The position numbers and the translations under genes are program-made. Positions 1 through 17,318 of a stretch of 64,000 nt of DNA are shown here, piece after piece. The DNA is from Escherichia coli (GTDB lineage Bacteria > Pseudomonadota > Gammaproteobacteria > Enterobacterales > Enterobacteriaceae): the NCBI RefSeq assembly GCF_050920415.1, contig NZ_CP169309.1; one strand, 5' to 3'. A model generated the notes under the pieces. It was not told the DNA's origin. It did not search any database and worked only from the letters and a program-made list of their open reading frames with translations. Positions within the stretch are counted from its first letter, which is position 1. Each line of letters begins with the position of its first letter.

Positions 1-287
1 GCGTCGGCCTGCGCACGCGTAAGTCGATGGCGTTCGTACTCAATAGTCCCTGGCTGGAGATCTGCCTCGCTGGCCTGCCGCAGTTCTTCAACCTCCCGGC
101 GCAGCTTTTCGTTCTCAATTTCAGCATCCCTTTCGGCATACCATTTTATAACGGCGGCAGAGTCATAAAGCACCTCATTACCCTTGCCACCGCCTCGCAG
201 AACGGGCATTCCCTGTTCCTGCCAGTTCTGAATGGTACGGATACTCGCACCGAAAATGTCAGCCAGCTGCTTTTTGTTGACTTCCAT
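1..287 (-). CDS. nu1: Terminase small subunit Nu1, N-terminal part (3' end runs off window)
   Basis: Minus-strand translation from ATG at 285-287 reads [68 protein letters not shown], recognised as the lambda Nu1 N-terminus. Confidence 0.9.
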
Positions 288-379
288 TGTTCATTCCACG
301 GCCAAAAACAGAGAAAGGAAACGACAGAGGCCCAAAAGCTCGTTTTCAGCACCTGTCGTTTCCTTTCTTTTCAGGGGGT

Positions 380-520
380 ATTTTAAATAAAAACATTAAG
401 TTACGACGAAGAAGAACGGAAATGCCTTAAACCGGAAAATTTTCATAAATAGCGAAAACCCGCGAGGTCGCCGCCCCGTAACAGGCCGGATCGCCAGAAA
501 GGACCCTAAAATGATAATAA
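380..520. other. cos site (cosB-cosN-cosQ region), lambda type
   Basis: Complement of about 465-476 is GGGCGGCGACCT, the lambda 12-nt cohesive end, immediately upstream of Nu1; flanking sequence reads like lambda cosB. Confidence 0.8.
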
Positions 521-675
521 TTATCAATTAAATAAAAGTTATCTCAACCGACAAGTTCACCATGAAAGAGGACAAATAATGAGTTCGGTCTCAATGCATT
601 AATTGATCTGCATCAAATTTAAGTAAAAACATCTTTGGACAATACAGAACACTGCCGTGAATATGGAAAAAGACA

Positions 676-888
676 ATGTCATCGAAGAACAAAACCAGCA
701 AAACAACAACCCGTAACATCCGTTTTCCCAATCACATGATTGAGCAGATCAATATCGCCCTTGAGCATAAAGGCTCCGGCAACTTTTCGGCATGGGTTAT
801 TGAAGCCTGTCGCCGGAGGCTGGCAGCAGACATAAAATGTGCCCGTCAGTTAACTGTAACAAAGAATGATACACCGTCTGCTCTGTGA
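676..888 (+). CDS. Small ribbon-helix-helix-like protein (YlcI/DUF3950-like)
   Basis: 70-aa ORF with RNIRFPNHMIEQINIALEHK...NFSAWVIEACRRRL pattern (strand-helix-helix); sits beside Nu1 as ylcI does beside nohD in DLP12. Confidence 0.5.
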   Translation: MSSKNKTSKTTTRNIRFPNHMIEQINIALEHKGSGNFSAWVIEACRRRLAADIKCARQLTVTKNDTPSAL

Positions 889-1035
889 TAACTGTTCATA
901 TAACCATTTCTTTATATTGCTGAATTTACAAAAAGTCGCAGTTATTAGTCGTATTTATTCCGAATTGAAATCATCCGTCATATAAAATAAAAAAGAATAA
1001 CAATAATAATCTTCTACCCTTATCAGTACCTTTAC

Positions 1036-1065
1036 TGCTGTGCTCCAACACAGCAGTTTTTTTGA
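1036..1065 (+). terminator. Rho-independent terminator
   Basis: CTGCTGTG-ctccaa-CACAGCAG stem followed by T7. Confidence 0.6.
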
Positions 1066-1686
1066 TTATGCTCACATATTTTTCATCCCCACCGCACTGC
1101 ACATTATAACTGTTGCTTTTCAATTCAGGCTTTGTGCAGGTATGTCTGAATCTCCTCCGGGAGAGGTCTTCATCGTTATCAGCCCCAAAACACACCAGCG
1201 ACACTGACAAAGAGCCTGCGAGTGCAGTTGCCCCGTTTTCATTTTATGATGTATTCACCCAGTCAAATAATGAGCAAATTCAATCCATGTCAGACGGCAG
1301 AGAATCATAAAATTTAACCATCGTGCTTACATAAACAATCCGATAAAGACTTAACATACTTAAAATCGCATATTGCATAAGAATAAATAATAAGTCATCA
1401 AAAAACATCGGGCAAAACTACCGCAACTCCAGTTAAAAAGACAATATATTAATCCAGCGACCTCATTTATTATTCAGAAATGCTTAATAATAAGATATTT
1501 CCTGTTATTCCTTTATGGAGATGGGTAACTGCTCCATGCCAGTCTTGTTGAATGGCTCAAAAAATAAGAGAATAATTCATAACATATATTGTAATTCAGG
1601 CTCGGTTATTTCGAATTGAATACTTGCATTAAAATCTGATAAAAAATTCGTCATAACAACAACATTCTCTTCTGCATGTGCCATAA

Positions 1687-1716
1687 CCTGCCGTAACAAC
1701 CCGGCAGGTTTTTTTA
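1687..1716 (+). terminator. Rho-independent terminator at end of AT-rich non-coding stretch
   Basis: CCTGCCG-taacaacc-CGGCAGG stem followed by T7; no ORF of 60 aa or more upstream. Confidence 0.5.
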
Positions 1717-1922
1717 TTGAATAAATTTCCGGTTTCTTCCACCATCGCACCGGCCAGGCGACTATGAGGGGACAACGCCGCGCTCCGTTAACGCAGTAAA
1801 CCCCGGTGTGTATCGTTTTTGATTATCCCCGCACACTCGCGCAGAGGAGTCTCCCTGTCGGGCTACGGTCTCTGTTAATACGGGAATACGGCGACAATAC
1901 CGCGCATGGATAATAAGGTCGC

Positions 1923-2147
1923 TCAACACACTGGCTGTAATGCAGCCGATACCATGCGGCATTTAGCGGCATTCATCGTACACTCAACGGTTAGCTCTTC
2001 ATTCGTGGCATTCACCTGAAAGATCCGGGAGTGTAATTGCGTACATTTACCACTGAACGAACCTTCAACAAGAACACGACCACGCTGCAAAATACGGAAC
2101 AGAATTGTTCCCTGAAAAGGCTTTACGGTTACCAGTAATTTCTTCAT
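1923..2147 (-). CDS. Hypothetical small protein (possibly a remnant); not Bor
   Basis: ORF with GGAGA RBS before ATG (MKKLLVTVKPFQG...); an overlapping second-frame ORF 1762-1962 hints at disruption; weak support. Confidence 0.3.
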   Translation of the reverse strand: MKKLLVTVKPFQGTILFRILQRGRVLVEGSFSGKCTQLHSRIFQVNATNEELTVECTMNAAKCRMVSAALQPVC

Positions 2148-2170
2148 GCATTCTCCGGATAACAAAAATA

Positions 2171-2638
2171 CTAGTTAATACACTGAGTGCGGATATATTC
2201 CTGCGCCCCTTCCAGCTGCTTCTGCATCATCATCAACCGCTCTCTGAGAGTGAAATAATCCCGTTCAACTGTGTCTGCCAGTCGGGGGCCGGTTGCATTA
2301 TCCACGCCGGAGGTGCCGGTGGCTTCACGCACGGTACCGGAGCAGGTGGCGTTGATCCGCAGGCGCTTACGACCAGCGGCAACATCAGCACGCAGAGTTT
2401 CATTTTCAGCTCTCGCATCGGCTAATTCCCTCGAGTATCTGGCATCAAGTGCAGCGACATCACGCTGGCGTATCTGCATATCAGTAATTGTCGCGTTCGC
2501 CAGCTCCAGCTCTCTGACTTTTTTATCGCGCTGCGCTTTGTAGGTGATGGCGTTATCGCGGTAATGATTCAGCCCCAGACCAAGCGCACCACAGGCTACC
2601 AGCAGGACAATAATCACCACACACAGAACACGGTTCAT
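2171..2638 (-). CDS. rz: Rz inner-membrane spanin (i-spanin)
   Basis: 155 aa with N-terminal TM segment and coiled-coil body ([58 protein letters not shown]); directly downstream of endolysin. Confidence 0.85.
2233..2418 (-). CDS. rz1: Rz1 outer-membrane lipoprotein spanin (o-spanin), embedded in the +1 frame of Rz
   Basis: 61 aa [61 protein letters not shown]: lipobox then proline-rich region, like lambda Rz1. Confidence 0.85.
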
Positions 2639-2778
2639 ATCCCCCTCACCCCATCATCCCCGACGAAGACAACATCATCCAGCCTAAGAGCAACCAGCAT
2701 TAGTGAAAATGAAATGCCGACGATTACACAGAGGATCTTCGCCAGCGTTATGAGCTTGTCTGACATGCTTAATCCTCT

Positions 2779-3039
2779 TCACGATTTCAACGCAATGACC
2801 AGTTTTGCCAGCCCATACAGCATCGGAGACACAGCAATACCGACCGCCACCCACTTAATAGCAAAAGCCAGCGCTCTGCTGATGTCATCAGTTACAGGCG
2901 CTTTCAGTTCAAGGCCGTTTTTCATAGTCAACCTCAACAGAATTCGTTTATACTTTTCCATGTTCTCCCTTGCCTTATCCAAGGTCAGAAACACAAAACC
3001 CCGCTTGCTGCCAACAAACGGGGTTTTACTTTTATTCAC
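2779..3039 (-). CDS. Small membrane protein of unknown function between endolysin and Rz (start uncertain)
   Basis: ORF with C-terminal hydrophobic segment (AFAIKWVAVGIAVSPMLYGLAKLVIALKS); position inside lysis cassette. Confidence 0.35.
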   Translation of the reverse strand: MNKSKTPFVGSKRGFVFLTLDKARENMEKYKRILLRLTMKNGLELKAPVTDDISRALAFAIKWVAVGIAVSPMLYGLAKLVIALKS

Positions 3040-3116
3040 TTAGGTTTTGCCAGTTCGCAGGATTTCGTGTTATCCGTCCGCGTTGGTCAACGTCATTTTT
3101 CAGCAAAATATTCTGC

Positions 3117-3650
3117 TTATCTGTCGATTCCCCAGCACGCCAGCGCGCTCTCCTGGTCACGACGGGATATCTGACCGTAACAGTTGTTTGAGCGGATACG
3201 GCAGTCTCTGCCACCGTCCTTAATCCACCAGCGAATCGCTTCACACGCTCCCCTGCGATCGCCTGCATTAATTCGTTTATAAAACGTCGACGGGAAACAC
3301 TTACCGGGGCCAATGTTATACGGGCAGAATGACGCGATCCCCGCTTTCTGGGGTTCAGTCAGTGGCACTTTGATGTTTTTCGCCACCCATGCCAGCGCCT
3401 TATCACGTTCAATGGCGTTAACCCGGTCGCATTTTTCCTTTGACAGCTTCATGCCAGGAATAACAGGCTTACCATCCACCCGGGTGGCTCCACGGCAGAT
3501 GGTCCAGATCCCCGCACCATCACGGTATGCCGTGGTGTGGTTACCTTCCTTTTCATCCAGAAACTGGTCGAGGATTTCAGGCGCAGGCGCACCTGCGGCA
3601 ATCAGCGCCAGAACGGCAGCCGACAGACCGTATTTGATTTTGGTGTTCAT
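3117..3650 (-). CDS. SAR endolysin (phage lysozyme R, GH24)
   Basis: 177 aa; N-terminal signal-anchor-release segment (LSAAVLALIAAGA) then lysozyme motif EGNHTTAYRDGAGIWTICRG. Confidence 0.9.
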   Translation of the reverse strand: MNTKIKYGLSAAVLALIAAGAPAPEILDQFLDEKEGNHTTAYRDGAGIWTICRGATRVDGKPVIPGMKLSKEKCDRVNAIERDKALAWVAKNIKVPLTEPQKAGIASFCPYNIGPGKCFPSTFYKRINAGDRRGACEAIRWWIKDGGRDCRIRSNNCYGQISRRDQESALACWGIDR

Positions 3651-3778
3651 GGATATTTATCAGGATTTATCGGTTCCGAATCCCTGGATATGTTAAGTCT
3701 TCAGCCTGCCAGTGGTGGGCACTGGTGTTTTACCTGATGGCTGAAATATATCTGACAATTCCCGTCGAGGATTTAGCA

Positions 3779-4093
3779 ATGTATAACGATGAACATAAAT
3801 ATACCGCCTGCATGCAGGCCATGAATGAACAATTTAAATCAGCATTCCTTAAACTCATTCAGCAAAACCACAAAGCAGTAAAATCCATTCAGGCTGAGCC
3901 GTATGGACACCTCACACCACCAACTCTCGACATTATGTCCAGAATATTAACACCAGCCATGCTTCTACGTCTGAAAGACAATATAAATGACTGGTTAAAC
4001 GAAGAATTAAACTACCTTGAATGTGAGTGGGATCATCATTACGCCAAATCACAAAAAGAACGCATCTTCCGTCGATTATCCGGCAACAGATAA
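3779..4093 (+). CDS. Hypothetical protein, opposite strand to lysis genes (insert in lysis cassette)
   Basis: 104-aa ORF from ATG with GAGGA RBS 7 nt upstream; converges on the 4103-4743 gene with a 9-nt gap. Confidence 0.45.
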   Translation: MYNDEHKYTACMQAMNEQFKSAFLKLIQQNHKAVKSIQAEPYGHLTPPTLDIMSRILTPAMLLRLKDNINDWLNEELNYLECEWDHHYAKSQKERIFRRLSGNR

Positions 4094-4102
4094 CGAGCCA
4101 GC

Positions 4103-4743
4103 TTATATACGTCCTTTAAGATAAGTCAGTCCTGGATGAAACCAGTAAGCAGGCACTTTTTTAAAGGGTGGATTATCAAAATCACGAAGAAGAGCCTCCC
4201 GCACAACTGCATCCTTGTCCGCACCACTGGCCAGCGCTTCAATCTCAGCAGCTACCTGCAGATATCCCATGCAACGACCAATGCGCTTCATTAGTCCCTG
4301 CTTTTTATTGTTCTTCAGGTAATCAATGGCAAATTCAATGAGCGCCTCACTGTGCTGGTGCGATGCTGGTGTTACTTTTCCATCTTCACGGATCGTGATA
4401 TTCCAGTCATCGCTTGTCACAATAAAAGATGGCCGATTCCCCCCCCATGCCTGGTCTTTATCCGGTGCAGACGCAATAAAATAACGTTTATTGCCTTCCT
4501 CTCCGGCACTTTTAACTGTAATGGAGTACTTTTCTGACAATGCGGTCGGTAAAAACTTTTCCTGCAAAATCTTCTCAAAGGTCCTGCGAGCAATTTTGAT
4601 GCAATCATCGTAAAACGCTGCTTCCTGCTCATCGCGGCGTTTTTTTCATCTTCAGAAACCATCAGCACCGACAGTTTTTTATTCAGTTCAGTGATTTCAT
4701 TTTCCAGGCAACTTATGCGCTGATTCATTTCTTCATGGTTCAT
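4103..4743 (-). pseudogene. Hypothetical protein gene between holin and endolysin, interrupted by a frameshift (ORFs 4417-4743 and 4103-4567)
   Basis: N-terminal ORF (MNHEEMNQRISCLENEITELNKKLSVLMVSEDEK) and C-terminal ORF (...QEKFLPTALSEKYSITVKSAGEE...) join into one plausible protein if the A/T run at 4640-4646 had one more base (EDEKKRRDEQEAAFYDDCIKIARRTFEKILQEKF). Confidence 0.5.
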
Positions 4744-4746
4744 CGT

Positions 4747-4962
4747 CTACTCTCCCCGCGCCGCCTTACGCCGGTCCTCTCTGATTTTGAAATACAGGTT
4801 AGTCAGGTACGTCAGCAGGCCAAACAGCAGACTCCCCAGCACACCTATCGCCACCCACTGGGACGGAGAGACTTTGTCCAGCAGCTGCAGTAACCAGTAT
4901 CCCGTCCCCACCGCTGACGTGGTGTATGACACACCTGTTGTGATTTTTTCCATCTGGTACAT
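4747..4962 (-). CDS. Holin (lambdoid EssD-like, dual-start motif)
   Basis: 71 aa [71 protein letters not shown]; matches remembered DLP12 EssD; Met-x-x-Met dual start. Confidence 0.85.
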
Positions 4963-5264
4963 ACCCCGTCTCCCGTTATCCGGAAACTGACAACAATAAA
5001 AAAGCCACCCGTTAATTACTGATGGCTCTGATGCATAAACGTCATCATTCCTGACCGTTATGATTGACAATGGTTATCATTTTTATATAAAAATACTCCC
5101 GATATGTGTTACATATCATTTCTCCACGGGGAATATCCCCACGCCAGCGTCAGACTCGTTTTCCCGTTCTCTTCTGTGCTGGCGTTTTTTTTATTATGAT
5201 GTCGGTACATTTATCTCCAGCACCAGGCTTTCAATCTCAACACCATACGCGGAATTTTTGGGCG

Positions 5265-5295
5265 TAAAAAATCCCCTCCGGTGAGGGGATTTGCT
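5265..5295. terminator. Hairpin terminator downstream of TerB-like operon (possibly bidirectional)
   Basis: CCCCTC-ACCG-GAGGGG stem with T/A runs on both sides. Confidence 0.5.
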
Positions 5296-5523
5296 TATGT
5301 AAACATTTACACTGCTTACCTGCATGGTGCCGGGTGCCTCCCGGTGAATTCAGTATCAGCACCTGAATCCGCAATTATCCCATATACCTACTTGCTGATT
5401 GCCCCTCCGCACAGGGGGATTCACCATGCGAAATTTTTTTAACAAATGCTCAGTCTGACAGGCAACTGTCAACTGGCTGAATTGTGAGACATTTAAAATT
5501 TTCGGGGCGTAACTGATACCCGG

Positions 5524-5688
5524 TTAACTACCTGGCATGTCCTTTTTCACCAAAGGAAAAAGCACCACCACAATACCGACCACCAGCACTCCATCCGCCA
5601 GCACCGACATGATCCTGCTGGTGAAATCCACCATCACCACCAGAAACAGCAGGAGTGCCACAGCGGCCAGACGCAGTTTTACCGTCAC
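5524..5688 (-). CDS. Small hydrophobic membrane protein (54 aa), translationally coupled to TerB-like gene
   Basis: GTG start overlapping the TerB-like TGA stop (GTGA); GGAGAA RBS; product VTVKLRLAAVALLLFLVVMVDFTSRIMSVLADGVLVVGIVVVLFPLVKKDMPGS is almost wholly hydrophobic; below the ORF-track length cut-off. Confidence 0.4.
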   Translation of the reverse strand: MTVKLRLAAVALLLFLVVMVDFTSRIMSVLADGVLVVGIVVVLFPLVKKDMPGS

Positions 5689-6116
5689 AGGTGGTTCTCC
5701 AGTCGCAGGCCAAGAACACCAGCAATCTCTTCCAGAACCTTACGCTCTTCCGGCTCAATTTCACCATCTGCTTCAGCAATGGCCACCGCCACATCCAGCA
5801 CATCTTCCGCTTCACGCGTATCGTGTTTCACATCTTCAATTTCACGCAACGCTGCACGACGACCAATTTTAAAATTGGTGTCAAGCTGACCTGTGATCGT
5901 GGCACTGATGGCATTAATTTCTGACGTAAACGTGGACAACGCTGGCTGGTTACGTAATACCTGTTCGATCTTCGCTTTCTCTGAAGTCTCACATTCACCA
6001 TCTGCATAGGCCACTAGGTAGGCAGCATTAATAACCGCCTGTGCCAGATCGCGTTTCTCAAACTTTTTAATTTCAGTTGCTGCTCTGCGGGTTTTCTTTT
6101 TGAAAATACCAAACAT
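5685..6116 (-). CDS. TerB-like (tellurite-resistance TerB domain) protein
   Basis: 143 aa with paired acidic helices typical of TerB (LAQAVINAAYLVAYADGECETSEKAKIEQVL ... VLDVAVAIAEADGEIEPEERKVLEEIAGVLGL). Confidence 0.7.
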   Translation of the reverse strand: MFGIFKKKTRRAATEIKKFEKRDLAQAVINAAYLVAYADGECETSEKAKIEQVLRNQPALSTFTSEINAISATITGQLDTNFKIGRRAALREIEDVKHDTREAEDVLDVAVAIAEADGEIEPEERKVLEEIAGVLGLRLENHL

Positions 6117-6289
6117 CGTGACTTTTCCTTTTAGTGGGTGAGCCTGCGCCCTGCGGGGACCAGCCCACAGAGAAAGTCACACTGACCATCCCGTAAGCTC
6201 CCCCCTGAAAAGCTCTGTGGTTTTTGATATACGCCGGGCGTGGCGCGGATACAAAAAAGGCCCGCAAAAGCGAGCCAGGAAAATAAGTA

Positions 6290-6366
6290 TGGCGCGTTGT
6301 ACTGGATTCGAACCAGTGACCGATTGCTTAGAAGGCAATTGCTCTGTCCGACTGAGCTAACAACGC
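6290..6366 (-). tRNA. tRNA-Arg (anticodon UCU), phage-encoded
   Basis: Minus strand GCGTTGTTAGCTCAGTCGGACAGAGCAATTGCCTTCTAAGCAATCGGTCACTGGTTCGAATCCAGTACAACGCGCCA folds as a canonical cloverleaf with anticodon loop CTTCTAA. Confidence 0.85.
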
Positions 6367-6379
6367 ATGATGCAGATAA

Positions 6380-6460
6380 TGGACCGCCATCGAGGACTCG
6401 AACCCCGCACCAACAACCCTGTTATCGTGTCGTCTGCTCTTCCTGATGAGCTAATGGCGG
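6380..6460 (-). tRNA. Atypical tRNA-like gene (acceptor, D and T arms present; anticodon arm does not fold canonically; possibly degenerate)
   Basis: Minus strand CCGCCATTAGCTCATCAGGAAGAGCAGACGACACGATAACAGGGTTGTTGGTGCGGGGTTCGAGTCCTCGATGGCGGTCCA: acceptor pairing, GCTC/GAGC D stem, GTTCGAGTC T arm and CCA end, but 27 nt between D and T stems. Confidence 0.45.
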
Positions 6461-6467
6461 TACGTTA

Positions 6468-6542
6468 TGGTGGCCCTGCTGGATTTGAACCAGCGACCTG
6501 GCGATTATGAGTCGCTCACTCTCACCACTGAGCTAAAGGGCC
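6468..6542 (-). tRNA. tRNA with CAU anticodon (resembles E. coli tRNA-Ile2, lysidine type; could be Met type)
   Basis: Minus strand GGCCCTTTAGCTCAGTGGTGAGAGTGAGCGACTCATAATCGCCAGGTCGCTGGTTCAAATCCAGCAGGGCCACCA; anticodon loop CTCATAA; acceptor stem one pair short of canonical. Confidence 0.8.
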
Positions 6543-6582
6543 GGGCGCAGGATAATAACGGTACGTAACTAATTCTGCAATA

Positions 6583-7641
6583 TCATCCGTTCTGACTGAC
6601 TAAATCCTGAACTTCCTTGACCGTCTGCTCAAAACGCTCAGTCTCCAGCTCAACGCCAATTGCACGACGTCCCAGCGCCATCGATGCTTTGACCGTCGAA
6701 CCCGACCCCATGAAAAAATCTGCAACCAGATCTCCCGGACGACTGCTTGCGCTGATTATCTGCTGCAACATTTCTGCCGGTTTTTCGCACGGATGTTTCC
6801 CGGGATAGTACTGCACCGGTTTATGCATCCACACATCGGTGTACGGCACCTGCACAGTCACACCGAAATACCGCCGCAAATTTTTATATTCTCTCAGCAG
6901 TTCCGTATACTGCCGGTTCAGTTCACTGTATGTGCTGACCAGCTGGTGGTGTGGCTGCTCCAGTTCACCGCGCTGATGTTTTTCTGCTGCAACACGCGCA
7001 AACAACGCCTGCAATTTGTTGTAATCAGCTTCGTTCGGTAACTGCCACTGACTGGTACCAAACCAGTGCGAAGCCATGTTTTTCTTTCCGGTGGCTTCCG
7101 CTATCTGTTTTGACGTTATTCCCAGTTCGGCACGAGCATCCCTGAAATACGATATCAGCGGTGCCATTATGTGCTGTTTGAGTTCCCTTTCTTTTGCCGC
7201 ATAGCCGTCACTTTTGCCGCGATATGGCCCCTGGTAATGTTCAGCAAACAGAACGCGCTCTGTGGCAGGAAAATATGCGCGCAGACTTTCTTTATTACAC
7301 CCATTCCAACGTCCGGACGGCTTCGCCCAGATGATATGGTTAAGCACGTTGAAACGTTCACGCATCATGATCTCAATATCAGATGCCAGGCGATGCCCAC
7401 AGAACAGGTAAAGGCTTCCGGCAGGTTTCAACACCCGCCAGAACTGGGCCAGACAGTGGTCCAGCCACTTAAGATAATCTTCGTCCCCTTTCCACTGATT
7501 GTCCCAACCGTTGGGTTTCACCTTGAAGTAAGGCGGATCGGTAACAATCAGGTCAATGGAATCATCAGGCAGGGACTGAATAAAATGCAGGCAATCAGCG
7601 TTGATTAAATCAACACTGTTTATTTTTACAGTATTTTTCAT
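6583..7641 (-). CDS. DNA methyltransferase (N6-adenine or N4-cytosine, DPPY motif), no adjacent restriction enzyme
   Basis: 352 aa with IVTDPPYF catalytic motif and C-terminal AdoMet motif DLVADFFMGSGST. Confidence 0.85.
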   Translation of the reverse strand: MKNTVKINSVDLINADCLHFIQSLPDDSIDLIVTDPPYFKVKPNGWDNQWKGDEDYLKWLDHCLAQFWRVLKPAGSLYLFCGHRLASDIEIMMRERFNVLNHIIWAKPSGRWNGCNKESLRAYFPATERVLFAEHYQGPYRGKSDGYAAKERELKQHIMAPLISYFRDARAELGITSKQIAEATGKKNMASHWFGTSQWQLPNEADYNKLQALFARVAAEKHQRGELEQPHHQLVSTYSELNRQYTELLREYKNLRRYFGVTVQVPYTDVWMHKPVQYYPGKHPCEKPAEMLQQIISASSRPGDLVADFFMGSGSTVKASMALGRRAIGVELETERFEQTVKEVQDLVSQNG

Positions 7642-7791
7642 GGATCAGTAAGCGTAACTCTGGTAGGCTCACTCTGCTTTTGCGCTAAAGCAGTGGGCCG
7701 TGGTTCGCTTGTGACCAGTAAGCATGAGCGAATGGCTGGCAGGTGCTACCAACACCCACCAGCCGCCCATTTTCACAGCAGGAAACCGCCA

Positions 7792-7998
7792 TTACTGGCA
7801 GCGTCTGAATTTATTCCCGTACCCGCCGTTATCCTTCGCCAGACCCGCCAGAACTAACTGAGTCAGTATTAACTGGCACCGGACTTCGCTTACTCCGGTA
7901 GTTCTCGTCATCATGCGTGGCGTTACCCACTTGTCAGCAGGTAAGAAATGAAGGACTGCGGCGGCGGTTTCTGTCATATCTTGCTGTTTTAGCATGTT
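7792..7998 (-). CDS. Hypothetical small protein
   Basis: ORF from ATG (MLKQQDMTETAAAVLHF...) with AAGGGA RBS; function unknown. Confidence 0.4.
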   Translation of the reverse strand, partial: NMLKQQDMTETAAAVLHFLPADKWVTPRMMTRTTGVSEVRCQLILTQLVLAGLAKDNGGYGNKFRRCQ

Positions 7999-8264
7999 TT
8001 TTCCCTTCTGGTTAACATGACATACCAATAACTCTTGTCTAAAAAGCCAGCAAGATAAAAAGTCAGTATTCACGACCACCAGCGTGTTTACTGTACTGCA
8101 CCAAGTTTACAGGTACAAAAAAACCGCTCAGCGGCGGGTTTAAGTTGTGTGGCGAAGTAACCACTCTTAACAGCATATTTGATTTTTTACGATTGTAAAC
8201 GGTTGATTATTCATCTCCAATAAAAATAATTGTGTAGGTATGCCCTTAACAATGGATAAGAAAC

Positions 8265-8711
8265 ATGAATAAAATGACTGTATTATTACTTAGCGCAACT
8301 ATCATTTCAGGTTGTACTTCTTCCGTACCATTGATAAAGAAAACTCAATCAGGAAAACCTGAGGGGGTTTATCAAAATACGACAAAAGATAAAGTCAAAG
8401 ATGCCCTTGTGAATTACTGCAATAGTAGAGGGTTGATAATTTACAACGCGGATAACAGCAGTGTTATATGTGGTAAAGAACTGGAAGGCGGGTCTGCTGT
8501 TTTTGGACAAATGTTAATCGGCAATGCCTATTCAACAACCCCGGTATCAAAAGTCAGATTTACTATCGCTCAAGTTAATAACGATACAAAAGTGTGGGCC
8601 GATATGTGGATGGAAACTCAAATGGCAATGGGGCAAGTACAACAAATGGCTATAACAGACAACGCAAGCAAAAACACTATCCAACAACGTCTTGATGAAT
8701 TAAAACCTTAA
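8265..8711 (+). CDS. Lipoprotein of unknown function (moron antisense to late transcription)
   Basis: 148 aa; signal peptide MNKMTVLLLSATIISGC with lipobox Cys; AT-rich codon usage unlike neighbours. Confidence 0.7.
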   Translation: MNKMTVLLLSATIISGCTSSVPLIKKTQSGKPEGVYQNTTKDKVKDALVNYCNSRGLIIYNADNSSVICGKELEGGSAVFGQMLIGNAYSTTPVSKVRFTIAQVNNDTKVWADMWMETQMAMGQVQQMAITDNASKNTIQQRLDELKP

Positions 8712-8731
8712 GTAAATTAATTAAATAAAAT

Positions 8732-8754
8732 GGGGAGAAATAAATCGACTCCCC
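8732..8754. terminator. Hairpin terminator between Q and lipoprotein gene (candidate tR'-like for minus strand)
   Basis: GGGGAG-11 nt-CTCCCC; on the minus strand it is followed by ATTTTATTT. Confidence 0.5.
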
Positions 8755-8796
8755 ACACATTAAACTGATTCAATTACCCCCTCAATAAGAGATCTT

Positions 8797-9162
8797 CTAA
8801 CGATCCATCTCTAGCTCAATTTCTAACATCATTAACATGCCATCAACTACACCTTCAGCCTTTTGCAATAAACGCCCAACCCAGCAATCAGAACGCCCAT
8901 GTTTACGGGCAAGCGCCATAAACGTCATACCACCTACATAATAATCCACTAATAAATCGTGCAAATCGCTGTTGTTCTTTTTCAGGCGAGCCATGCACCC
9001 ACAAATGATCATCGCGTCATCGTCACAACATTGCGGGCGGGATTTTACTTTTGAAGGGATTAGTCCTTTAAATCCTGCAGCAATAGACGACCAGGTGACA
9101 TCCTCGTGATTATTTGCCACCCATGCCCCCCAACGTTCAAGAACCATTTGAATATCACGCAT
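8797..9162 (-). CDS. Late antitermination protein Q (QuuD-like)
   Basis: [14 protein letters not shown]...[35 protein letters not shown]...ELEMDR; recognised as DLP12 QuuD-type Q with Cys cluster. Confidence 0.85.
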
Positions 9163-9179
9163 CAACTTTCTCCACAAAA

Positions 9180-10169
9180 TCAGGCCAGAACGCCAATTGC
9201 CAGCGCACGATCGATAAAACGAAATATCAGCTCCAGCTGGGAGCCATACTTCTCTTCAAATGCCACGGTATCCGCATGCAGCTCGTCGTGATGCTTTCTG
9301 CACAAAGGCAACACAAAAAGGTCATGCGCTTTTGTTCCCATTCCACCCTGACCGTGACCTATCAGGTGGTGGGGATCATCAGCAGGCTTTCCACAACATG
9401 CACACGGCTGTGTCTTAACCCAGCGCGTGTACTTTTCATTAACCCAGCGGCGACGTTTGGGGCGTAACATAAAAGACTCCGGCGACTCCGGATCCACTTT
9501 CAGCGCCAGCACCTTTTTCGCTTTATCCTGGATGATGCTGGTGGCAGGAACCGAAGGCACAAGGTCACACTCCCGGGTGACAGACGGCACAACAGGCGTC
9601 GGTAATCTCAGTGCCTTACGGGCTGCACTTTCCGGTAAGGCATCCGCCAGGTCATTACGAGCCAGCCACCAGCACAGTTCCGGCATTGTCACAACGTGAC
9701 TATCATCAAAACCGAGATCCCGACGCACGACAGATAACACCCACCGGGCACAGTTATCCGTTGCCATTGATTCCAGCCGTTCCGTGAACTGATCGCGCAG
9801 CTGGTTATCGCAGTGCCAGCACAGACGGATTGCGCCCGGAGCGTGTCGCATTGTGGTCATATTCTCGCTGTGCCAGTCGGAATGAGGCCACTGGCAGCCT
9901 TTTTCACGAAGTAACCAGCTTTCAAGACATTCCACGCCACCAGCACGACGGATTACCGCCTCATTGCGGAACATAGCCCGAACGGCAGGATCATCCGCCA
10001 GCGGTTGTGATGCCGCCGGAACGGCACCACTGGCAAAAGATGAATAACGTTCCGGCTCAGGCTCCAGCAGGACACGCCCCTGCATAAACAGGGGCATCAG
10101 CTCTGAACCGGGTCTGAACAATACGATCCCCATACGTGGGGCAATTTCAGGGGTCAGTAGTGCTCTCAA
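9180..10169 (-). CDS. DUF968 family protein (YdfU-like)
   Basis: 329 aa; C-terminal Cys/His-rich region [43 protein letters not shown] typical of lambdoid nin-region YdfU-like proteins. Confidence 0.75.
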
Positions 10170-10178
10170 CGTAGAACC

Positions 10179-10694
10179 TCACAGCACAATCTGTTTCAGT
10201 TTCTGTACCGCTTTCCCCATATCCGCCATAGCATCAACAAACTCATCAAATTTACGACTTGCCATTCCATACGCCTGGAGGATTTCCAGTTTCAGAGGAT
10301 CCAGTTGCTTTTTAATTTCCGCACGATCATTAAATTTCTTCTCTGCTTCTTCCGCAGCCCTGATCAGCTCCTCAGCATGCCTGCGTAATTCATCCGGAGT
10401 AACGGTCTTTTTAATCACAACGGGTTCCTCTGTTTTTACTGGTATTTCACTATTTACTGCCTGATGTCCAAATTTAGGATGATGTAACGTTGTAGTTCTT
10501 CCATCATTCGCAACGACCAGAAGTCCACTGTCGCGGATAATGCCAATGAGTATCTCCTTATCCCTTTTATTCAGCAGACTGTACGCCTGCACTTTCTGTG
10601 ATATCTGGGTCAGTGTTGCGCCTTCCGGCATTCGTTCAACAAAACGTTTAACCCTGGATAAAACTGGCTGCAGATGGGGTGGTGTAATTCGCAT
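10179..10694 (-). CDS. Hypothetical protein
   Basis: 171-aa ORF, well spaced in operon, no recognisable motif. Confidence 0.6.
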   Translation of the reverse strand: MRITPPHLQPVLSRVKRFVERMPEGATLTQISQKVQAYSLLNKRDKEILIGIIRDSGLLVVANDGRTTTLHHPKFGHQAVNSEIPVKTEEPVVIKKTVTPDELRRHAEELIRAAEEAEKKFNDRAEIKKQLDPLKLEILQAYGMASRKFDEFVDAMADMGKAVQKLKQIVL

Positions 10695-10709
10695 GCTCCA
10701 CGCCTCCCA

Positions 10710-11525
10710 TCAGTGAACGGTATCGAGCAGCTTTAACAGCTCAGGGAATCGGGATTCGAAGAAATGCGGCTGCGTCTCGCGCGGATTTGCAGGACTGGTG
10801 ATGTTCTTGCCGAACATGCAGCCTTTCGCCGTCAGCGACCAGAATTTTTTGATGTTGTTAATCGCGGTACGGCTGTATCGTTCGCGTTGTTCAACGATCC
10901 CCAGCTTCGCCATCTGGTGATATGCCTGATTAGCCGTCAGGCGGATACCATACTGCTTCAGCAGTGCACTCAGCGACAGCGTAGGGCGGCTTGAACCATC
11001 TGGCGCATCAGCAGGTGCATCAATGGCATAGATCGGCATAAGTTCAGGAAGACCTGCTACCTTTGATAATTTCTGGTATGCACCAAGTTTCGAGGAGTTT
11101 GACAGATTTAGAGTCTTTGCTGCTGATTCAAGCAGAATGACCCCGGATTTAATTTTGTCGGATGTGGTTTCTTCTGGTGATGAATTATGAAGCGCATCAA
11201 AAGTACGTATCACTTTTAAGCTGAATGCCGGGCTGATCCACATTGCATATGCATAGACCAGCTCTTTACAGACATACGTCCCACCATTGCGCCCCTGAAT
11301 GGTGATGACAGGAATACTACGGGAATCTCCCGTAGTTTCTTCTTCCAGTAATTCCACAAGAGCCTTCGTTTCAGGACGACGCATAAACTCGTGAACTTCC
11401 AGCGAACGGGAGGAGCGATTCTCACCAGCGGCAAGAAGAGCAGCTTTCTGAAGGTCGTTAAGACAGTAGTTAGATTCAAAGTACTGGCGCACAGAAACGC
11501 CATCAATTACAAGCAACTGATTCAT
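10710..11525 (-). CDS. KilA-N domain protein
   Basis: From MNQLLVIDGVSVRQYFESNYCLNDLQKAA...: KilA-N-like N-terminal pattern; AAGAGG-type RBS context. The longer ORF-track start at 11621 is rejected. Confidence 0.75.
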   Translation of the reverse strand: MNQLLVIDGVSVRQYFESNYCLNDLQKAALLAAGENRSSRSLEVHEFMRRPETKALVELLEEETTGDSRSIPVITIQGRNGGTYVCKELVYAYAMWISPAFSLKVIRTFDALHNSSPEETTSDKIKSGVILLESAAKTLNLSNSSKLGAYQKLSKVAGLPELMPIYAIDAPADAPDGSSRPTLSLSALLKQYGIRLTANQAYHQMAKLGIVEQRERYSRTAINNIKKFWSLTAKGCMFGKNITSPANPRETQPHFFESRFPELLKLLDTVH

Positions 11526-11676
11526 TGGTTTCTCCACAAATTTCGGGACTGCACTCCCTTTTCGTTGATGCAAGATGAACTTACTGCGATTTTTAATAGT
11601 TATCAAGGATACACTGTTCATAAATACAGTACCTTTAACGAGGTAATACCCAAATTTAGGGTGTTGCTCAATTCCG

Positions 11677-12072
11677 TTACCGAGTTGCTAATTTGCAACT
11701 CGCTTTTTCGTACTTACTGATAGTGATCTCGACCTTACCTTCCGGGATAACCGGTCCCCACTCCACCAGCATTCTTTTCACCTGACTGTCGTCTTCCCAC
11801 ACCCCCGCGTGGGTCAGGGCGTCAAACAGCGCCTTGTTATAGTTGTCCAGATCGCGGATCCGGTTATCCGGAGGAAACAACACGATCTCCACTGAAGCAG
11901 GTGCCGACGTTGGTTTCGGCAGACGACGTAACTGCTCAACTATTGCTGCGCACGCCGCGCTCTGGAATTTTCGCCCCGCCGCGCTTATCAGGCTCTTACC
12001 AGCAAACGCCCCTTTGTTGGGGTGTCGCCAGTACGTGTTCACGCTGGGCGGGAAAGGCAGTATTAGCTTCAT
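11677..12072 (-). CDS. rusA: Holliday junction resolvase RusA
   Basis: 131 aa with RusA signature DxDN (RIRDLDNYNKALFDALTHAGVWEDDSQV). Confidence 0.9.
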   Translation of the reverse strand: MKLILPFPPSVNTYWRHPNKGAFAGKSLISAAGRKFQSAACAAIVEQLRRLPKPTSAPASVEIVLFPPDNRIRDLDNYNKALFDALTHAGVWEDDSQVKRMLVEWGPVIPEGKVEITISKYEKASCKLATR

Positions 12073-12395
12073 ACTTTCAGGCCCCTCTCATGTAACCAGT
12101 GGGTTGCACGCAGCCTGGCGTTTTCCTCACCGGCAAGCAGTGAGCGGATAATCCCGACCGCCTCGCTGTCGTCGTCCTTCATCGCAGTATGAAGCGTTAT
12201 CCCCCGGGCCACGCCACGCTTTATCGTGATGACGCCTTTTTTCTCCAGTGCGCGAAGATGCTCCACCGCTGCATTCACTGAACGGTATCCCAGCATGGTT
12301 GCCACCTCCTGATTGGTTGGCGGGAAGCCACGTTCTTTCTGATAAGAAATCAGCATATCCAGCACCTGCTGCTGGCATTGAGTTAACGTCGTCAT
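12069..12395 (-). CDS. LexA N-terminal-like winged-helix DNA-binding protein (no peptidase domain)
   Basis: MTTLTQCQQQVLDMLISYQKERGFPPTNQEVATMLGYRSVNAAVEHLRALEKKGVITIKRGVARGITL parallels the LexA N-terminal domain; ATG overlaps the upstream gene stop (ATGA). Confidence 0.75.
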   Translation of the reverse strand: MTTLTQCQQQVLDMLISYQKERGFPPTNQEVATMLGYRSVNAAVEHLRALEKKGVITIKRGVARGITLHTAMKDDDSEAVGIIRSLLAGEENARLRATHWLHERGLKV

Positions 12396-13044
12396 GCCGC
12401 CATCTCCCTGACCAGTTTTTCCGCCTGCTGGCGAACCTGCGCCAGAAACGCCTCACCACATGCCTCAAGTTCATCGCGCCCGATGTAGCTGATTGCCGGT
12501 CCCTTCCAGGTCTGTCGAAAACAGCAATAGCACCAGCGAAGAAAGCGCCTGTCGGCACCTGCTTCTCATCTTTCGGGATAAACCAGGCAGGCAGTTCAAA
12601 ACCAATACGCCCGCGAATAAAAGCAATATGATCTGCATCTTCCGGCCACCACACTTCGCTGGTGGCAGCTTTGATCAGGAAAACATAGCGCCCGCCTTTA
12701 TCACGCATGGCACTGGCATGTTTCATGATGTAACGCATGCCGGTGATGTATTGCCCCTCATGCTGACTGGCGCGGCTGTATGGGGGATTACCAAAGGCAG
12801 CACCTTTAAGCTCCGCAAGACGTTCTGACCAGTCATGCGCCAGCGCGTTGTCTTCCGCCGTGTAATACGCGGTACATTTGGCGTTATCACCGTCAGTAAA
12901 CAGATCCAGGACAAACGGGCCAAACAGGGTGTTAATTCCCCAGAAAATGTTACCCGGCGTGCGCCACTGATCGCCCACTTCCTTCAGTTCATGGGCTGGT
13001 TTGTTCCGCAGTTCCACCAGCGCCCGGCAATATTTATTACTCAT
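12392..13044 (-). pseudogene. Phage Dam-family N6-adenine DNA methyltransferase with a 1-nt frameshift near 12505-12522
   Basis: N-terminal frame: MSNKYCRALVEL...GAAFGNPPYS...FFAGAIAVFD. C-terminal frame: QTWKGPAISYIGRDELEACGEAFLAQVRQQAEKLVREMAA, ending in TGA overlapping the next ATG. One extra A in the A4 run (about 12518-12521) would join them. The 316-aa ORF-track read-through has an Arg-rich junk tail. Confidence 0.7.
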
Positions 13045-13532
13045 TAAGCCCCCACGTAATTCCCTGACAGATACCACTCTTCACCCGATGCAGCGCGCTT
13101 GCTACTTTTCCGTAAGCACCGCTCACGACGCGCCAGAAAATTGTTTCGTTCTGGCAGGGAGTGGCTTTCACGGAATGCCGCCATCCACACGGTTGCAGCA
13201 CGACGAAATAAGCCCCTGGACTCCAGTTCTTCCGCCTGGCGGGTCAGGCACAAAATCACCCGTGGATCGTTAGTGCCGACATAGAAATTGCGCACAGGTC
13301 TGGTTTCACGAACTGGTTGTGGTTCCGGCTCCTGCGCTCTCTCAGTCAGGCGTGGGAAATGTCTGCGTGTATCTCCTTCACAACGGTGAGCCACACGCCC
13401 ACTCTGACGTAACTTGCTTGCTGACTGCAGAACGCGCTGTCGTGAGTAACCAGCAAAAGCATCCGCAATGTCTCCGGAAGTACACCCCGGATGGGCTTCA
13501 ATGAATTTCTGAACTTCATTCAAAAGACTCAT
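13044..13532 (-). CDS. Hypothetical protein with N-terminal HTH-like region
   Basis: 162-aa ORF; stop overlaps the methyltransferase start (TAATG); no family recognised. Confidence 0.6.
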   Translation of the reverse strand: MSLLNEVQKFIEAHPGCTSGDIADAFAGYSRQRVLQSASKLRQSGRVAHRCEGDTRRHFPRLTERAQEPEPQPVRETRPVRNFYVGTNDPRVILCLTRQAEELESRGLFRRAATVWMAAFRESHSLPERNNFLARRERCLRKSSKRAASGEEWYLSGNYVGA

Positions 13533-14353
13533 AATCCCCCCCTGAATCCTGCCGGGATCTGGCTGTAGTCCACGTTGTCGTAACTGGCTTTGAAGTACGG
13601 GTCCTCGCGTCTGGCTGCAGATACCGCAGGAACTTCCCAGGATTCTTCGAAATGACGATCCGGACCAAAGAACGTGACAGCCTGTTTCACAAATTGTGTG
13701 CCGCTGTTACCCATCGCAGATACCCAGCCCGCGTAGCGTTTCACACCTTCCAGCATGGTTTCGGGGTTTACTCCCTCATTCAAACGGGCTTTCCAGGCTT
13801 TGAAGGCTGCAGATTTTGAATTGCCACCAGCACGTTTGGGATATGCCAGCCATGCCTGCTCAAACTCCGGAGAGTATTCCGGTCGGTTTGAACGAACTCG
13901 CACGGACTCATCAACTGATGCACCAACAGCTATTGGTTCATTGACTGGTTCTTTGACTGGTTCAAAAGAGTGACTGGTTCTGGGTGAATCTCCTGCACTA
14001 CCCCCTGGTGCAACTCCTGCACTACCTGGTGAATTTGCTGCACCAGATAGTGAATTATTTGCACTACCCCCTAGTGAATCTCCTGCACCATCCAGATGAA
14101 GGAGATAGATATTACTTGAGTTACCTTTTTCACCTTTCCGGGTGACTTTTTTTACCAGCCCGGACTCACAAAGGGCCGCAATATGATTCATCACAGAACG
14201 TTTGCTAATCTCGCACTGGTCAGCAATATGCTGGTAGCTGGGCCAGCACTCACCCTGATCGCTGGCATTATCAGCCAGCTTGATCAGAACCAGTTTTCGC
14301 AATGGATTACCCACTCGAATTTTCATCGCTTTAACCATCAGCTCCATACTCAT
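13529..14353 (-). CDS. Replication initiation protein (HTH N-terminal domain, internal repeats, C-terminal helicase-loader-interaction-like tail)
   Basis: 274 aa; N-terminal HTH (WPSYQHIADQCEISKRSVMNHIAALCESGLVKK), central Gly/Ser/Ala/Pro repeats encoded by iterons, C-terminus ...SQIPAGFRGGL resembling the DnaT C-terminus in this window (SQIPPGFRG). Confidence 0.7.
   Translation of the reverse strand: MSMELMVKAMKIRVGNPLRKLVLIKLADNASDQGECWPSYQHIADQCEISKRSVMNHIAALCESGLVKKVTRKGEKGNSSNIYLLHLDGAGDSLGGSANNSLSGAANSPGSAGVAPGGSAGDSPRTSHSFEPVKEPVNEPIAVGASVDESVRVRSNRPEYSPEFEQAWLAYPKRAGGNSKSAAFKAWKARLNEGVNPETMLEGVKRYAGWVSAMGNSGTQFVKQAVTFFGPDRHFEESWEVPAVSAARREDPYFKASYDNVDYSQIPAGFRGGL
13940..14100. repeat. 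Iteron-like direct repeats (candidate origin of replication) inside the replication initiator gene
   Basis: GACTGGTTC three times, then about five imperfect 18-20 bp repeats of the TCCTGCACTACC(C)CCTGGTGAA type. Confidence 0.6.
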
Positions 14354-14574
14354 GCTGCACCTCCGAGATGCTTCATGTTTTTTCCGGAGCGAAAGGCTAT
14401 AAGCGGCATACTGACGCGGTAATTACGGCCCAGCGGTTCACAAATCACCTTCTGACATTCACGGTCAACCAGGCTAACACGTAGAACATGCCCTGCAGGC
14501 GTGGTGTACCACTGACCCGGTCGAGGACAACGGAAAGTCTGATTGGTAAACCGTTTGAAAATATTCCGGATCAT
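14350..14574 (-). CDS. Hypothetical small protein
   Basis: 74-aa ORF overlapping its neighbours' ends in operon; no motif recognised. Confidence 0.4.
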   Translation of the reverse strand: MIRNIFKRFTNQTFRCPRPGQWYTTPAGHVLRVSLVDRECQKVICEPLGRNYRVSMPLIAFRSGKNMKHLGGAA

Positions 14575-15722
14575 TTGCGCCCCCTTACCTCGGAAGAGTT
14601 CAGCGACGAATGAATAAGACGGGCAAGAAATGCCGCATCGTTAATTCGGTCATACAGACTTACAGCCAGCGGTGATTCAGCTTTTTCCAGCATGGGATAA
14701 AGCTGCTGCAACCAGACCTGATGAATTGATGAAATGTAGGAATAGAGTACGCTGGCGTTATGTGCAACGTCGCTCGGTACAGCGGGCTTTGAAAGCTGTT
14801 TCTCCATCTGGTTAAAGGCATTGATGTATGCCTCTTTGAACTGGGCAGCACGTTTACCCGTGAAACCCATAGCAAGAAACGCAAAACCGTCGCGGGTTAT
14901 TTGATAGCAAGGTAGTTTGCGGCCTGTGCAATCGGTGTAATCACTCACCGAAAAATTGCGGGCAGTGAATGATGCGGAGCATTCAAGCGTGCGGATCTTT
15001 TTCAGTACATCGTCATGACGTTTGGAGAAGAAGTTGGCAACAGCCAGGGATGAAGTAACAGCCTGACCATCAACGATGGCAATTTCAGGTTGAGTGAGGG
15101 TTGGGATCGTAGCCATGATGGCAGCCTCTTTGGTGATTTTTAATAACTCACCACCAAGGCTTTCCACGACCTTATTGGTGGTGAGACGTACAGGGGTGGA
15201 AATACCGGTCACCAAAGAACCCGGCCCAACCGAAGTTGGCCCTGCACGCCCCACCATAATTTGGGCGTAATGCTGCTCATGACACAAAAAAACCGCAAGA
15301 GCGCGGTTGTGCGCTTTGGTGAATTCCGGGTTTCCACGCCCGGCACCCGCTTTATAAGGTGCCTGAACAGTGTAACGTCCCGGAATGGCAGAATCAATGT
15401 GCTGGTGGTCCTTCACACTCAACAAAATCACGCCTGAATTTCCACAAAGGGCTAAAGCACTCATGCGGGTAGTCTTTGCGAAGATAGATAACGCGCTGTG
15501 TTTCTGGCTCCCAACGAATAACATGAACATAAAGTCCTCTTCCGTCACGAAACCAGCGGTTAAGTTCCTGCACAACTCGCCCCCCACAGTCAGGTAAAGT
15601 TCTCTGTGGTTACTTACAGCCAGGAGATTTGGTAATCTGCATTCATGCCGTAACAACAGGTGTTCAGCGACGCTGACCACCAGCTGTTGCGACAAATGGT
15701 TATTTGCCGTTAAACTGTTCAT
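14571..15722 (-). CDS. Rha-family phage regulatory protein with about 200-aa N-terminal extension of unknown function
   Basis: C-terminal half from MATIPTLTQPEIAIVDGQAVTSSLAVANFFSKRHDDVLKKIRTLEC... is Rha-like; N-terminal half is in the same frame with no stop; ATG at 15722 overlaps the upstream TGA (ATGA); an internal ATG at 15116 has an AAGAGG RBS. Confidence 0.7.
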   Translation of the reverse strand: MNSLTANNHLSQQLVVSVAEHLLLRHECRLPNLLAVSNHRELYLTVGGELCRNLTAGFVTEEDFMFMLFVGSQKHSALSIFAKTTRMSALALCGNSGVILLSVKDHQHIDSAIPGRYTVQAPYKAGAGRGNPEFTKAHNRALAVFLCHEQHYAQIMVGRAGPTSVGPGSLVTGISTPVRLTTNKVVESLGGELLKITKEAAIMATIPTLTQPEIAIVDGQAVTSSLAVANFFSKRHDDVLKKIRTLECSASFTARNFSVSDYTDCTGRKLPCYQITRDGFAFLAMGFTGKRAAQFKEAYINAFNQMEKQLSKPAVPSDVAHNASVLYSYISSIHQVWLQQLYPMLEKAESPLAVSLYDRINDAAFLARLIHSSLNSSEVRGRK

Positions 15723-16282: not shown

Positions 16283-16313
16283 CGTTCTGTGGTTAAAAAT
16301 TAAAGGTGTTCTG

Positions 16314-17279: not shown

Positions 17280-17292
17280 TCAATGTCTATGA

Positions 17293-17315: not shown

Positions 17316-17318
17316 TAC

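Follow-up and report, generated by a model that had tools for sequence, protein, structure and literature searches.

The chromosome of the Escherichia coli food isolate MFDS1022581 carries a cos site of the lambda type and the beginning of the adjoining small terminase gene Nu1; this identification was confirmed, and the element is real, ordinary and already well understood. The DNA analysed here, termed 'the window' throughout, is the whole 64-kb stretch NZ_CP169399.1 4451832-4515831; its first 4000 positions align to 4451832-4455831 of that record (plus strand) with 100% identity. Positions 1-506 of the window (minus strand) probably constitute a canonical lambda-specificity cos with the start of Nu1 (we put the rough probability of this reading at 0.93), which lies within a mosaic prophage of ~47.6 kb at the 5' end of prfC. 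Nothing that contradicts the identification as cos was found. The order of features across the window is Nu1, cos, lysis genes, Q, replication and immunity genes, and integrase, with host chromosome occupying the stretch from ~24.5 kb to 64 kb.

Identity of cos and Nu1 to phage lambda

Global alignment of window 476-1 (minus strand) with lambda bp 1-477 revealed 98.1% identity, with 8 mismatches and a single gap of 1 bp. The non-coding segment from cosN to the Nu1 ATG accounts for 6 of the mismatches and the gap (96.3%), whilst the part of Nu1 that falls within the window differs from lambda DNA by 2 mismatches (99.3%). The sequence flanking cosN, from lambda bp -5 to +53, was found to be the same as in lambda throughout. 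The original prediction, which held that the Nu1 N-terminus and cos are near-identical to lambda, is borne out by these figures, and the alignment of 1-520 with lambda that it had put forward as a check uncovered no substantial divergence of cos (Megablast, 97.1% over 3-520). In the same Megablast search 82 phage records matched window 1-520 at E = 0, the top match being phage PhiR42_1 (98.3%). Extending the claim of near-identity across the whole of 1-520 proved too generous: it stands for window 1-476, but window 477-520, on the cosQ side, has just 80% identity to lambda. Judged by these alignments, near-identity to lambda holds on one side of cosN only.

The 12-nt cohesive-end sequence GGGCGGCGACCT occurs once in the 64-kb window, at 465-476 (minus strand). 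When up to one mismatch was allowed, this 12-mer was also matched in 23 of 100 shuffles and is therefore weak evidence by itself; for this reason the case for cos is placed on the 476-bp alignment.

Anatomy of the cos site

Subsite coordinates were taken from the annotated record of phage 434, and the definitions of the subsites follow publications of the Feiss laboratory (PMC4669245; PMC9026076). All of the sequence-testable defining features of a lambda-specificity cos were found; among them, the cosB elements that separate cosN from the TerS gene follow the order R3-I1-R2-R1, R2 being inverted. Beginning at the end furthest from Nu1, the predicted packaging-termination signal cosQ (GGGTCCT; 500..506, minus strand), the lambda coordinates of which we take to be 48473-48479, has both the heptamer and the distance to cosN seen in lambda, with no indel in the alignment. 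It has been reported that cosQ is a 7-bp element and is strongly conserved (PMC4669245). The 23-bp spacer between cosQ and cosN (477..499, minus strand) carries 5 substitutions relative to lambda, and it is here that the right-end module of the prophage starts. The cohesive-end sequence of cosN, GGGCGGCGACCT (465..476, minus strand), is flanked by the nick sites and is identical to lambda, as is the I2 segment that separates cosN from cosB (428..464, minus strand; lambda bp 13-49), in which no indel is present. Indeed, lambda bp 1-138 align without any indel, so that the spacing from cosN to R3 is unchanged; this spacing tolerates almost no change, a 3-bp deletion having a severe effect (PMC9026076).

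Within cosB, the predicted R3 element, the critical TerS binding site (412..427, minus strand; R-core at 412-422, minus strand), has G54A as its sole change from lambda. The TerS contacts in R3 span bp 55-63, of which positions 56, 58 and 59 have been shown to be critical (PMC9026076; PMC4669245). In the window, R3 bp 55-65 are identical to lambda, including the specificity positions 56, 58 and 59, and G54A lies outside the contacted bp. The predicted IHF binding site I1 (391..403, minus strand) corresponds to lambda bp 74-86 and is annotated in phage 434. The predicted TerS binding site R2 (354..369, plus strand; R-core at 359-369, plus strand) is inverted relative to R1 and R3 and is identical to its lambda counterpart, and the same identity is seen for R1 (311..326, minus strand; coordinates according to the 434 annotation), also a predicted TerS binding site, the R-core of which is TTTCCTTTCTC (311-321, minus strand). 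These R-cores were located by a pattern search, which places all three inside 112 bp with R2 on the opposite strand. The interval between R2 and R1 has a 1-bp deletion relative to lambda, and this deletion is common to phage 434. A repeat search additionally identified a 26-nt inverted repeat in the R1-R2 region, with arms at 312-337 and 343-368; no direct repeats were returned for the cos interval, the R3 and R1 cores being too short for that search to register.

Beyond R1 lie the ribosome-binding site of Nu1 (GGA; 295..297, minus strand), the position of which was transferred from bp 180-182 of the phage 434 record, and the Nu1 ATG (285-287, minus strand), which is the start codon used in lambda. 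The window holds the 5' part of Nu1, codons 1-95 (1..287, minus strand; 'DNA-packaging protein' in RefSeq), and the gene extends past the left window edge. All 95 of these residues (95/95) are identical to lambda, including the recognition helix (residues 17-24, among them 20 and 24) and the wing (residues 31-39), and they match profile positions 1-95 of 164 in the Pfam family Phage_Nu1 (PF07471) with 200.4 bits against a cutoff of 30. Outside the window, the full-length Nu1 (181 aa) has 98.9% identity to lambda, and the downstream gpA (641 aa) has 99.5%; neither contains an internal stop.

The packaging specificity can be predicted with high confidence to be that of lambda, because the cis elements and the TerS DNA-binding domain match lambda at all positions known to matter. 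By analogy with the established lambda pathway, dimers of gpNu1 would bind R3, R2 and R1 of cosB through an N-terminal winged helix-turn-helix, and the DNA would be bent at I1 by IHF. The large subunit gpA, anchored by gpNu1, would then nick cosN at positions 12 bp apart, generating 5' cohesive ends of the sequence GGGCGGCGACCT. The cosB-bearing end would be threaded via the portal and the DNA translocated into the prohead, and packaging would be expected to end at the next cosQ and cosN.

The same cosB allele in other phages and prophages

The cosB allele of MFDS1022581 is not private to this strain. From cosN to the Nu1 ATG the window is identical at 189/189 positions both to phage PhiR42_1 (PV340562.1) and to the Qin prophage of E. 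coli K-12, where the sequence adjoins nohA; over bp 1-476 the identity to PhiR42_1 and to Qin is 99.4%. The K-12 prophage DLP12 (nohD) likewise carries the cos-Nu1 sequence. For this piece of DNA, this undermines the contrast that had been drawn between a packaging end from lambda and a remainder from the cryptic prophage families, since Qin (at every one of the 189 positions) and DLP12 carry the same cos-Nu1 sequence themselves. The likeness to PhiR42_1 and Qin does not continue across cosN, and on the cosQ side both are only 75-84% identical to the window. G54A and all of the other differences from lambda on the cosB side are common to PhiR42_1 and Qin, and these differences can be regarded as natural alleles because they are carried by deposited phages. 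A literature search found no paper on the PhiR phages, the viability of which rests on GenBank records that name an E. coli host strain.

Is the prophage functional for packaging?

The annotation places Nu1, A, W, B, C, D, E, FI and FII, together with a complete set of tail genes, left of the window. With the exception of B, all of the head genes are open without stops, and their identity to lambda is 91-99.5%. The only tail gene to be flagged is T ('frameshifted'). Lambda T is expressed by a programmed G-T frameshift. In this assembly one base is missing from the portal gene B, where a C4 run at lambda bp 3502 is shortened to C3, and the resulting frameshift leads to a stop at codon 254. The suggestion that the late region might be functional for packaging is therefore met by a mixed result: cos, Nu1, A and the other head and tail genes are open, whereas B is frameshifted and truncated. 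The survey of head and tail genes that accompanied the suggestion divides in the same way, every other gene being open and B being the exception. As assembled, the prophage is predicted to be unable to build proheads.

The portal deletion was lacking in both of the nearest sibling prophages, those of strains 06-00048 and N96, and amongst 5426 complete E. coli genomes the deletion allele was recovered in just 2; because of this rarity and its absence from both siblings, the defect either arose very recently or is an artefact of assembly. Other disrupted genes are present within the prophage. The ORF at 4103-4743 has likewise lost one base of a homopolymer (T8 to T7), and RefSeq records a frameshifted adenine methylase gene, an internal stop in yfdS, and truncation of yfdT and of a DUF551 gene. 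The flanking host DNA (about 54 kb) has no annotated frameshift. This confinement of frameshifts to the prophage leans toward either real decay or poor polishing of repeated prophage DNA. PGAP also reported Rz as 'frameshifted', a call that was rejected on inspection: positions 2171-2638 form an open 155-aa ORF in which Rz1 is embedded, with no indel relative to the siblings.

These observations bear on the most serious of the alternative explanations, namely that cos, like nohD-cos in DLP12 and nohA-cos in Qin, is a relic that its own element has ceased to use, the prophage being defective and unable to make portal-containing proheads, and could at most be packaged in trans by a co-resident phage of lambda specificity. 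The portal frameshift with its stop at codon 254 points in this direction, as do the remaining 1-bp deletions, the internal stop and the truncated genes when set against the host flanks, where none is annotated. An excisionase was not found in the RefSeq annotation, and the K-12 cryptic prophages provide a precedent in retaining the same cos-Nu1 sequence. Against this, all of the other head and tail genes are present and open, unlike those of DLP12 and Qin; the portal lesion amounts to the loss of one base from a homopolymer and has the restricted distribution described above; and the flagged Rz is in fact intact. On balance we consider this explanation possible, with the odds leaning against it. 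In the reading that we prefer, a lambda-specificity cos with its own terminase, the terminase and cis sites are intact; the prophage may be able to fill its own heads, and this hinges on whether the B deletion is genuine or was introduced during assembly. The homopolymer nature of the portal lesion calls for caution, and the B deletion needs to be confirmed before the prophage is counted as defective. Independently of the portal, the cos site could be packaged in trans by any terminase of lambda specificity.

A mosaic joint at cos

The block that resembles lambda is larger than the packaging end. The original prediction had confined it to that end, which is correct in so far as cos and Nu1 belong to it, but the block actually comprises the whole head module, which starts at cosN and ends with FII (lambda bp 1-7800, ~98%), and most of which lies outside the window. 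At the protein level, identity to lambda is 98.6% for W, 97.3% for C, 97.3% for D, 96.8% for E, 91.0% for FI and 91.5% for FII. From Z onward the tail genes fall to 60-87% identity, except for a patch in H. The notion that the prophage is phage lambda itself was rejected, since only bp 1-7800 match at ~98%, the tail matches at 60-87%, and the early, regulatory and lysis regions have few counterparts in lambda DNA.

On the other side of cosN a different set of relatives is found. Identity to lambda over window 477-821 is 74%, and lambda, DLP12 and Qin are about equally distant here (about 75%), whereas 99.4% is reached both by the Stx2g prophage of strain 06-00048 and by its stx-free sibling in strain N96, and 99.1% by the Stx2g prophage carried by strain OkiPb01695. 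All 5 substitutions in the cosQ-cosN spacer are common to the prophages of 06-00048, OkiPb01695 and N96. The first gene of this right-end module, a DUF3950 gene of the YlcI/YnfO family (676..888, plus strand; Pfam DUF3950, 72 bits), has 72% aa identity to its lambda and DLP12 counterparts. An alternative description of the DNA to the right of cos as DLP12/Qin-like, suggested by blastn HSPs spanning window -540..821 at 91-92%, was discarded because these HSPs are carried by the Nu1/cosB side. The closest relative of the MFDS1022581 prophage switches sharply at cosN in these alignments.

The same right end also occurs with a different packaging specificity. Window 432-4000 is matched at 99.4-99.6% in OkiPb01695 and roughly a dozen other genomes, where it stands on an unrelated cosB/TerS; in OkiPb01695 itself the match is 99.6%, and homology breaks at lambda bp 45/46. 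When the alternative cosB/TerS stretch was used as a query, 5 phage records matched over at least 80% of it, two of which are PhiR12_1 and PhiR12_4; the other phage records listed for this query matched lambda bp 1-45 only, most of them at 100%. The right end of Stx2g type has been found on a head module of lambda specificity in 3 genomes, and on the second type of TerS/cosB in at least a dozen others. Modular exchange among lambdoid phages, as had been proposed at the outset, is supported as the probable origin of this arrangement, both by the switch of relative at cosN and by the presence of the same right end on another TerS/cosB.

In evolutionary terms, a packaging/head module of lambda type (cosB through FII) has probably been combined with a right-end module such as Stx2g prophages carry, the joint being located in the invariant cosN/I2 core, at lambda bp -5 to +53. 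This position is indicated because the same right end adjoins two types of cosB and because core bp 1-45 are shared, at 100% identity, even by phages whose cosB types are unrelated. It can be asked more generally whether the cosN/I2 core (~50-60 bp) acts as a natural recombination linker that reassorts right-end modules (lysis genes, cargo and cosQ) and packaging-specificity modules (cosB, TerS and head genes). This reading is compatible with the data and we would give it even odds; it is only a modest extension of the known mosaic theory. If true, right ends that encode toxin could change their packaging specificity, and hence their relations with helpers and satellites, by one crossover in cos.

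An artefactual origin of the joint, in which the assembly would have fused the lambda-type and Stx2g-type halves of two co-resident lambdoid prophages into a chimera, appears very improbable. Repeats shared between lambdoid prophages are known to confuse assemblers (PMC8065619), and a 4-kb query matched 6 places in the MFDS1022581 genome; yet the same junction is present in the independent complete genomes 06-00048 (USA) and N96 (China), which come from other sources, and since both share the joint a chimera is unlikely. Over window 1-4000, cos junction included, identity is 99.7% to 06-00048 and 99.2% to N96. More far-fetched still is the proposal that this cos belongs to a PICI that hijacks a helper terminase via an Rpp protein: lambda-like cosQ and cosN do occur in PICIs, but there the cos sites have neither R sequences nor I1 and are followed by rpp (PMC9026076), whereas R3, I1, R2 and R1 are all present in the MFDS1022581 cos and the adjoining gene is Nu1, followed by A and the full head and tail set, so that a cos-rpp module is refuted by the anatomy of the site.

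The remainder of the prophage

A combination of RefSeq annotation, mosaic maps and an att repeat was used to delimit the remainder of the prophage in the window (477..24519, no strand assigned). It contains lysis genes, a TerB/DUF3927 cassette, tRNAs, Q, nin-like genes, immunity genes of e14 type, genes of CPS-53 type and an integrase (23013-24269, RefSeq annotation). According to the RefSeq annotation the insertion lies between prfC and yjjG, and the head and tail genes fall outside the window, on its left. Both junctions (window 24500-24519 and L001 13681-13700) were found to carry a 20-nt att repeat, GGGTGAGAAATAATTGCAAA, which lies in the 5' end of prfC, and it is because these repeats mark both junctions that the element can be sized at ~47.6 kb. 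Stx phages are known to insert at prfC (PMC8065619).

The remainder was compared with the K-12 cryptic prophages and lambda, both at the DNA level and gene by gene. The immunity genes ymfK, ymfT and ymfL are closest to those of e14 (99%, 98% and 89% aa identity, respectively; 92% DNA identity over 1748 bp). The yfdP, yfdQ and yfdR genes are closest to CPS-53 (99% aa; 97.7% DNA over 2413 bp), as is a PerC-family gene (97% aa). Amongst the other genes, Q is closest to DLP12 quuD (85% aa), the holin to those of DLP12 and Qin (79% aa), the lysozyme to Qin rrrQ (89% aa) and a DUF968 gene to Qin ydfU (57% aa), whilst Rz and Rz1 are closest to Rac, though also to DLP12 and lambda (about 70% aa). Beyond Rz/Rz1, no similarity to Rac was found in the window at either the DNA or the protein level. 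The description of this part of the prophage as resembling DLP12, CPS-53 and Rac needs to be amended: CPS-53 stands, DLP12 stands in part (through Q and the holin), and the Rac-like label is unsupported because only Rz/Rz1 match; e14, for the immunity genes, and Qin, for the lysozyme, are to be named instead. In the half of the prophage that holds the early and lysis genes, matches to lambda DNA are limited to a 385-bp stretch of Rz (82.6%) and 345 bp beside cos (74%).

The early half was also compared with whole phages. Stx2c-converting phages match it with 64% coverage at 95.2% identity, phage cdtI with 56% coverage at 94.8%, and phage 2H10 with 52% coverage at 95.7%. On sequence grounds, the Stx2c phages, phage cdtI and phage 2H10 are ranked as the best relatives of the region as a whole.

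Significance and comparison with known systems

The finding matters little beyond annotation, where it identifies the MFDS1022581 prophage as an stx-free sibling of an Stx2g phage with a lambda head module. Where 06-00048 carries stx2g, the MFDS1022581 prophage has the TerB/DUF3927 cassette. It differs from Qin, with which it shares its cosB allele, in that Qin is without terminase A and the head genes and the MFDS1022581 prophage retains both. Conserved cosQ and cosN combined with a variable cosB have been described previously (PMC4669245), as has the mosaicism of Stx-type prophages (PMC8065619). In particular, cosQ and cosN are the same in lambda and phage 21, which differ in cosB and in the recognition helices of TerS (PMC4669245). 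The packaging ends of OkiPb01695 and MFDS1022581 show the same architecture of variation as lambda and 21, with the difference that the alternative type in OkiPb01695 has been matched to PhiR12_1/PhiR12_4 only. What is described here corresponds to the textbook cos and terminase of lambda, set in a typical mosaic lambdoid prophage, and as such it is already known and will not surprise a specialist.

Portal gene B and the packaging end

The portal gene B of the prophage lies outside the window and carries a 1-bp homopolymer deletion, in which a run of four C residues is reduced to three at lambda bp 3502, with a stop at codon 254. The deletion is found at positions 33806-33808 of L001, the source-genome DNA that includes the head and tail genes to the left of the window (NZ_CP169399.1 4448805-4448807), ~3 kb left of window position 1. 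The gene is intact in the two sibling prophages, namely the Stx2g prophage of strain 06-00048 and the stx-free prophage of strain N96, and the deletion allele was found in only two of 5426 complete E. coli genomes.

At the packaging end, comparison with the Stx2g prophage of E. coli OkiPb01695 revealed a right end common to window 432-4000 at 99.6% identity, together with a cosB and a 169-aa small terminase (TerS) that are unrelated to those of window 1-432. The homology break between the two prophages is at lambda bp 45/46. Only five phage records, PhiR12_1 and PhiR12_4 among them, match 80% or more of this alternative cosB/TerS module (3341-4045 of L010, the OkiPb01695 DNA).

Insertion in prfC

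The prophage is inserted in the 5' end of prfC, with its core region indicated by a repeat of 20 nt (window 24500-24519 and L001 13681-13700) and a prfC remnant of 23 codons left at window 24496-24564. A second repeat of 22 nt, rich in TGTACA and present in both phage arms (window 24314-24335 and L001 13759-13780), probably represents the integrase arm sites. Further into the host chromosome, at ~62200-64000, a brnA antitoxin gene and a truncated brnT toxin remnant adjoin a gene for a restriction endonuclease and the beginning of a type I restriction-modification subunit M gene.

Antisense RNA and disrupted reading frames

On the minus strand at window 15174-15362, Rfam gave matches to the C4 antisense RNA and to isrK, with scores of 83.6 and 67 bits, respectively. 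They fall in the 5' third of the ORF at 14571-15722, which is annotated by PGAP as ‘Rha family’, and overlap its Pfam Ash-family stretch; the start of the protein may have been over-called. The region looks like an antirepressor control unit of the P1 immI/Gifsy-1 isrK type.

The ORF at 4103-4743 is frameshifted by a deletion at window 4640 (T8 to T7) and is intact in the siblings. Rz is frameshifted according to PGAP, yet window 2171-2638 is an open 155-aa ORF, within which Rz1 (2233-2418) is embedded. An AT-rich stretch of ~1 kb (889-1923), holding short ORFs only, separates the DUF3950 gene from the lysis cassette; it has no genes in the RefSeq annotation and no match in an Rfam search, and its identity in the sibling prophages is >99%.

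Cargo cassette and phage tRNAs

A TerB and DUF3927 cassette at window 5488-6241, flanked by phage tRNAs and the holin region, occupies exactly the place of stx2g A/B in the 06-00048 prophage; homology to the Stx2g prophage ends at 5487 and restarts at 6242. The cassette is common, with 80% or more of it found in 789 of 5426 complete E. coli genomes, often in multiple copies. Between it and the holin gene lies an STnc100 sRNA match (5260-5458, minus strand; Rfam, 148.7 bits). The tRNA cluster (6290-6543, minus strand) comprises Arg(TCT), a tRNA-like element of type ‘OTHER’ and a CAT-anticodon tRNA, which is assigned to Ile by PGAP and has a 1-nt deletion at window 6477 relative to both sibling prophages. 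A tRNA cluster of like kind is found in Stx phages.
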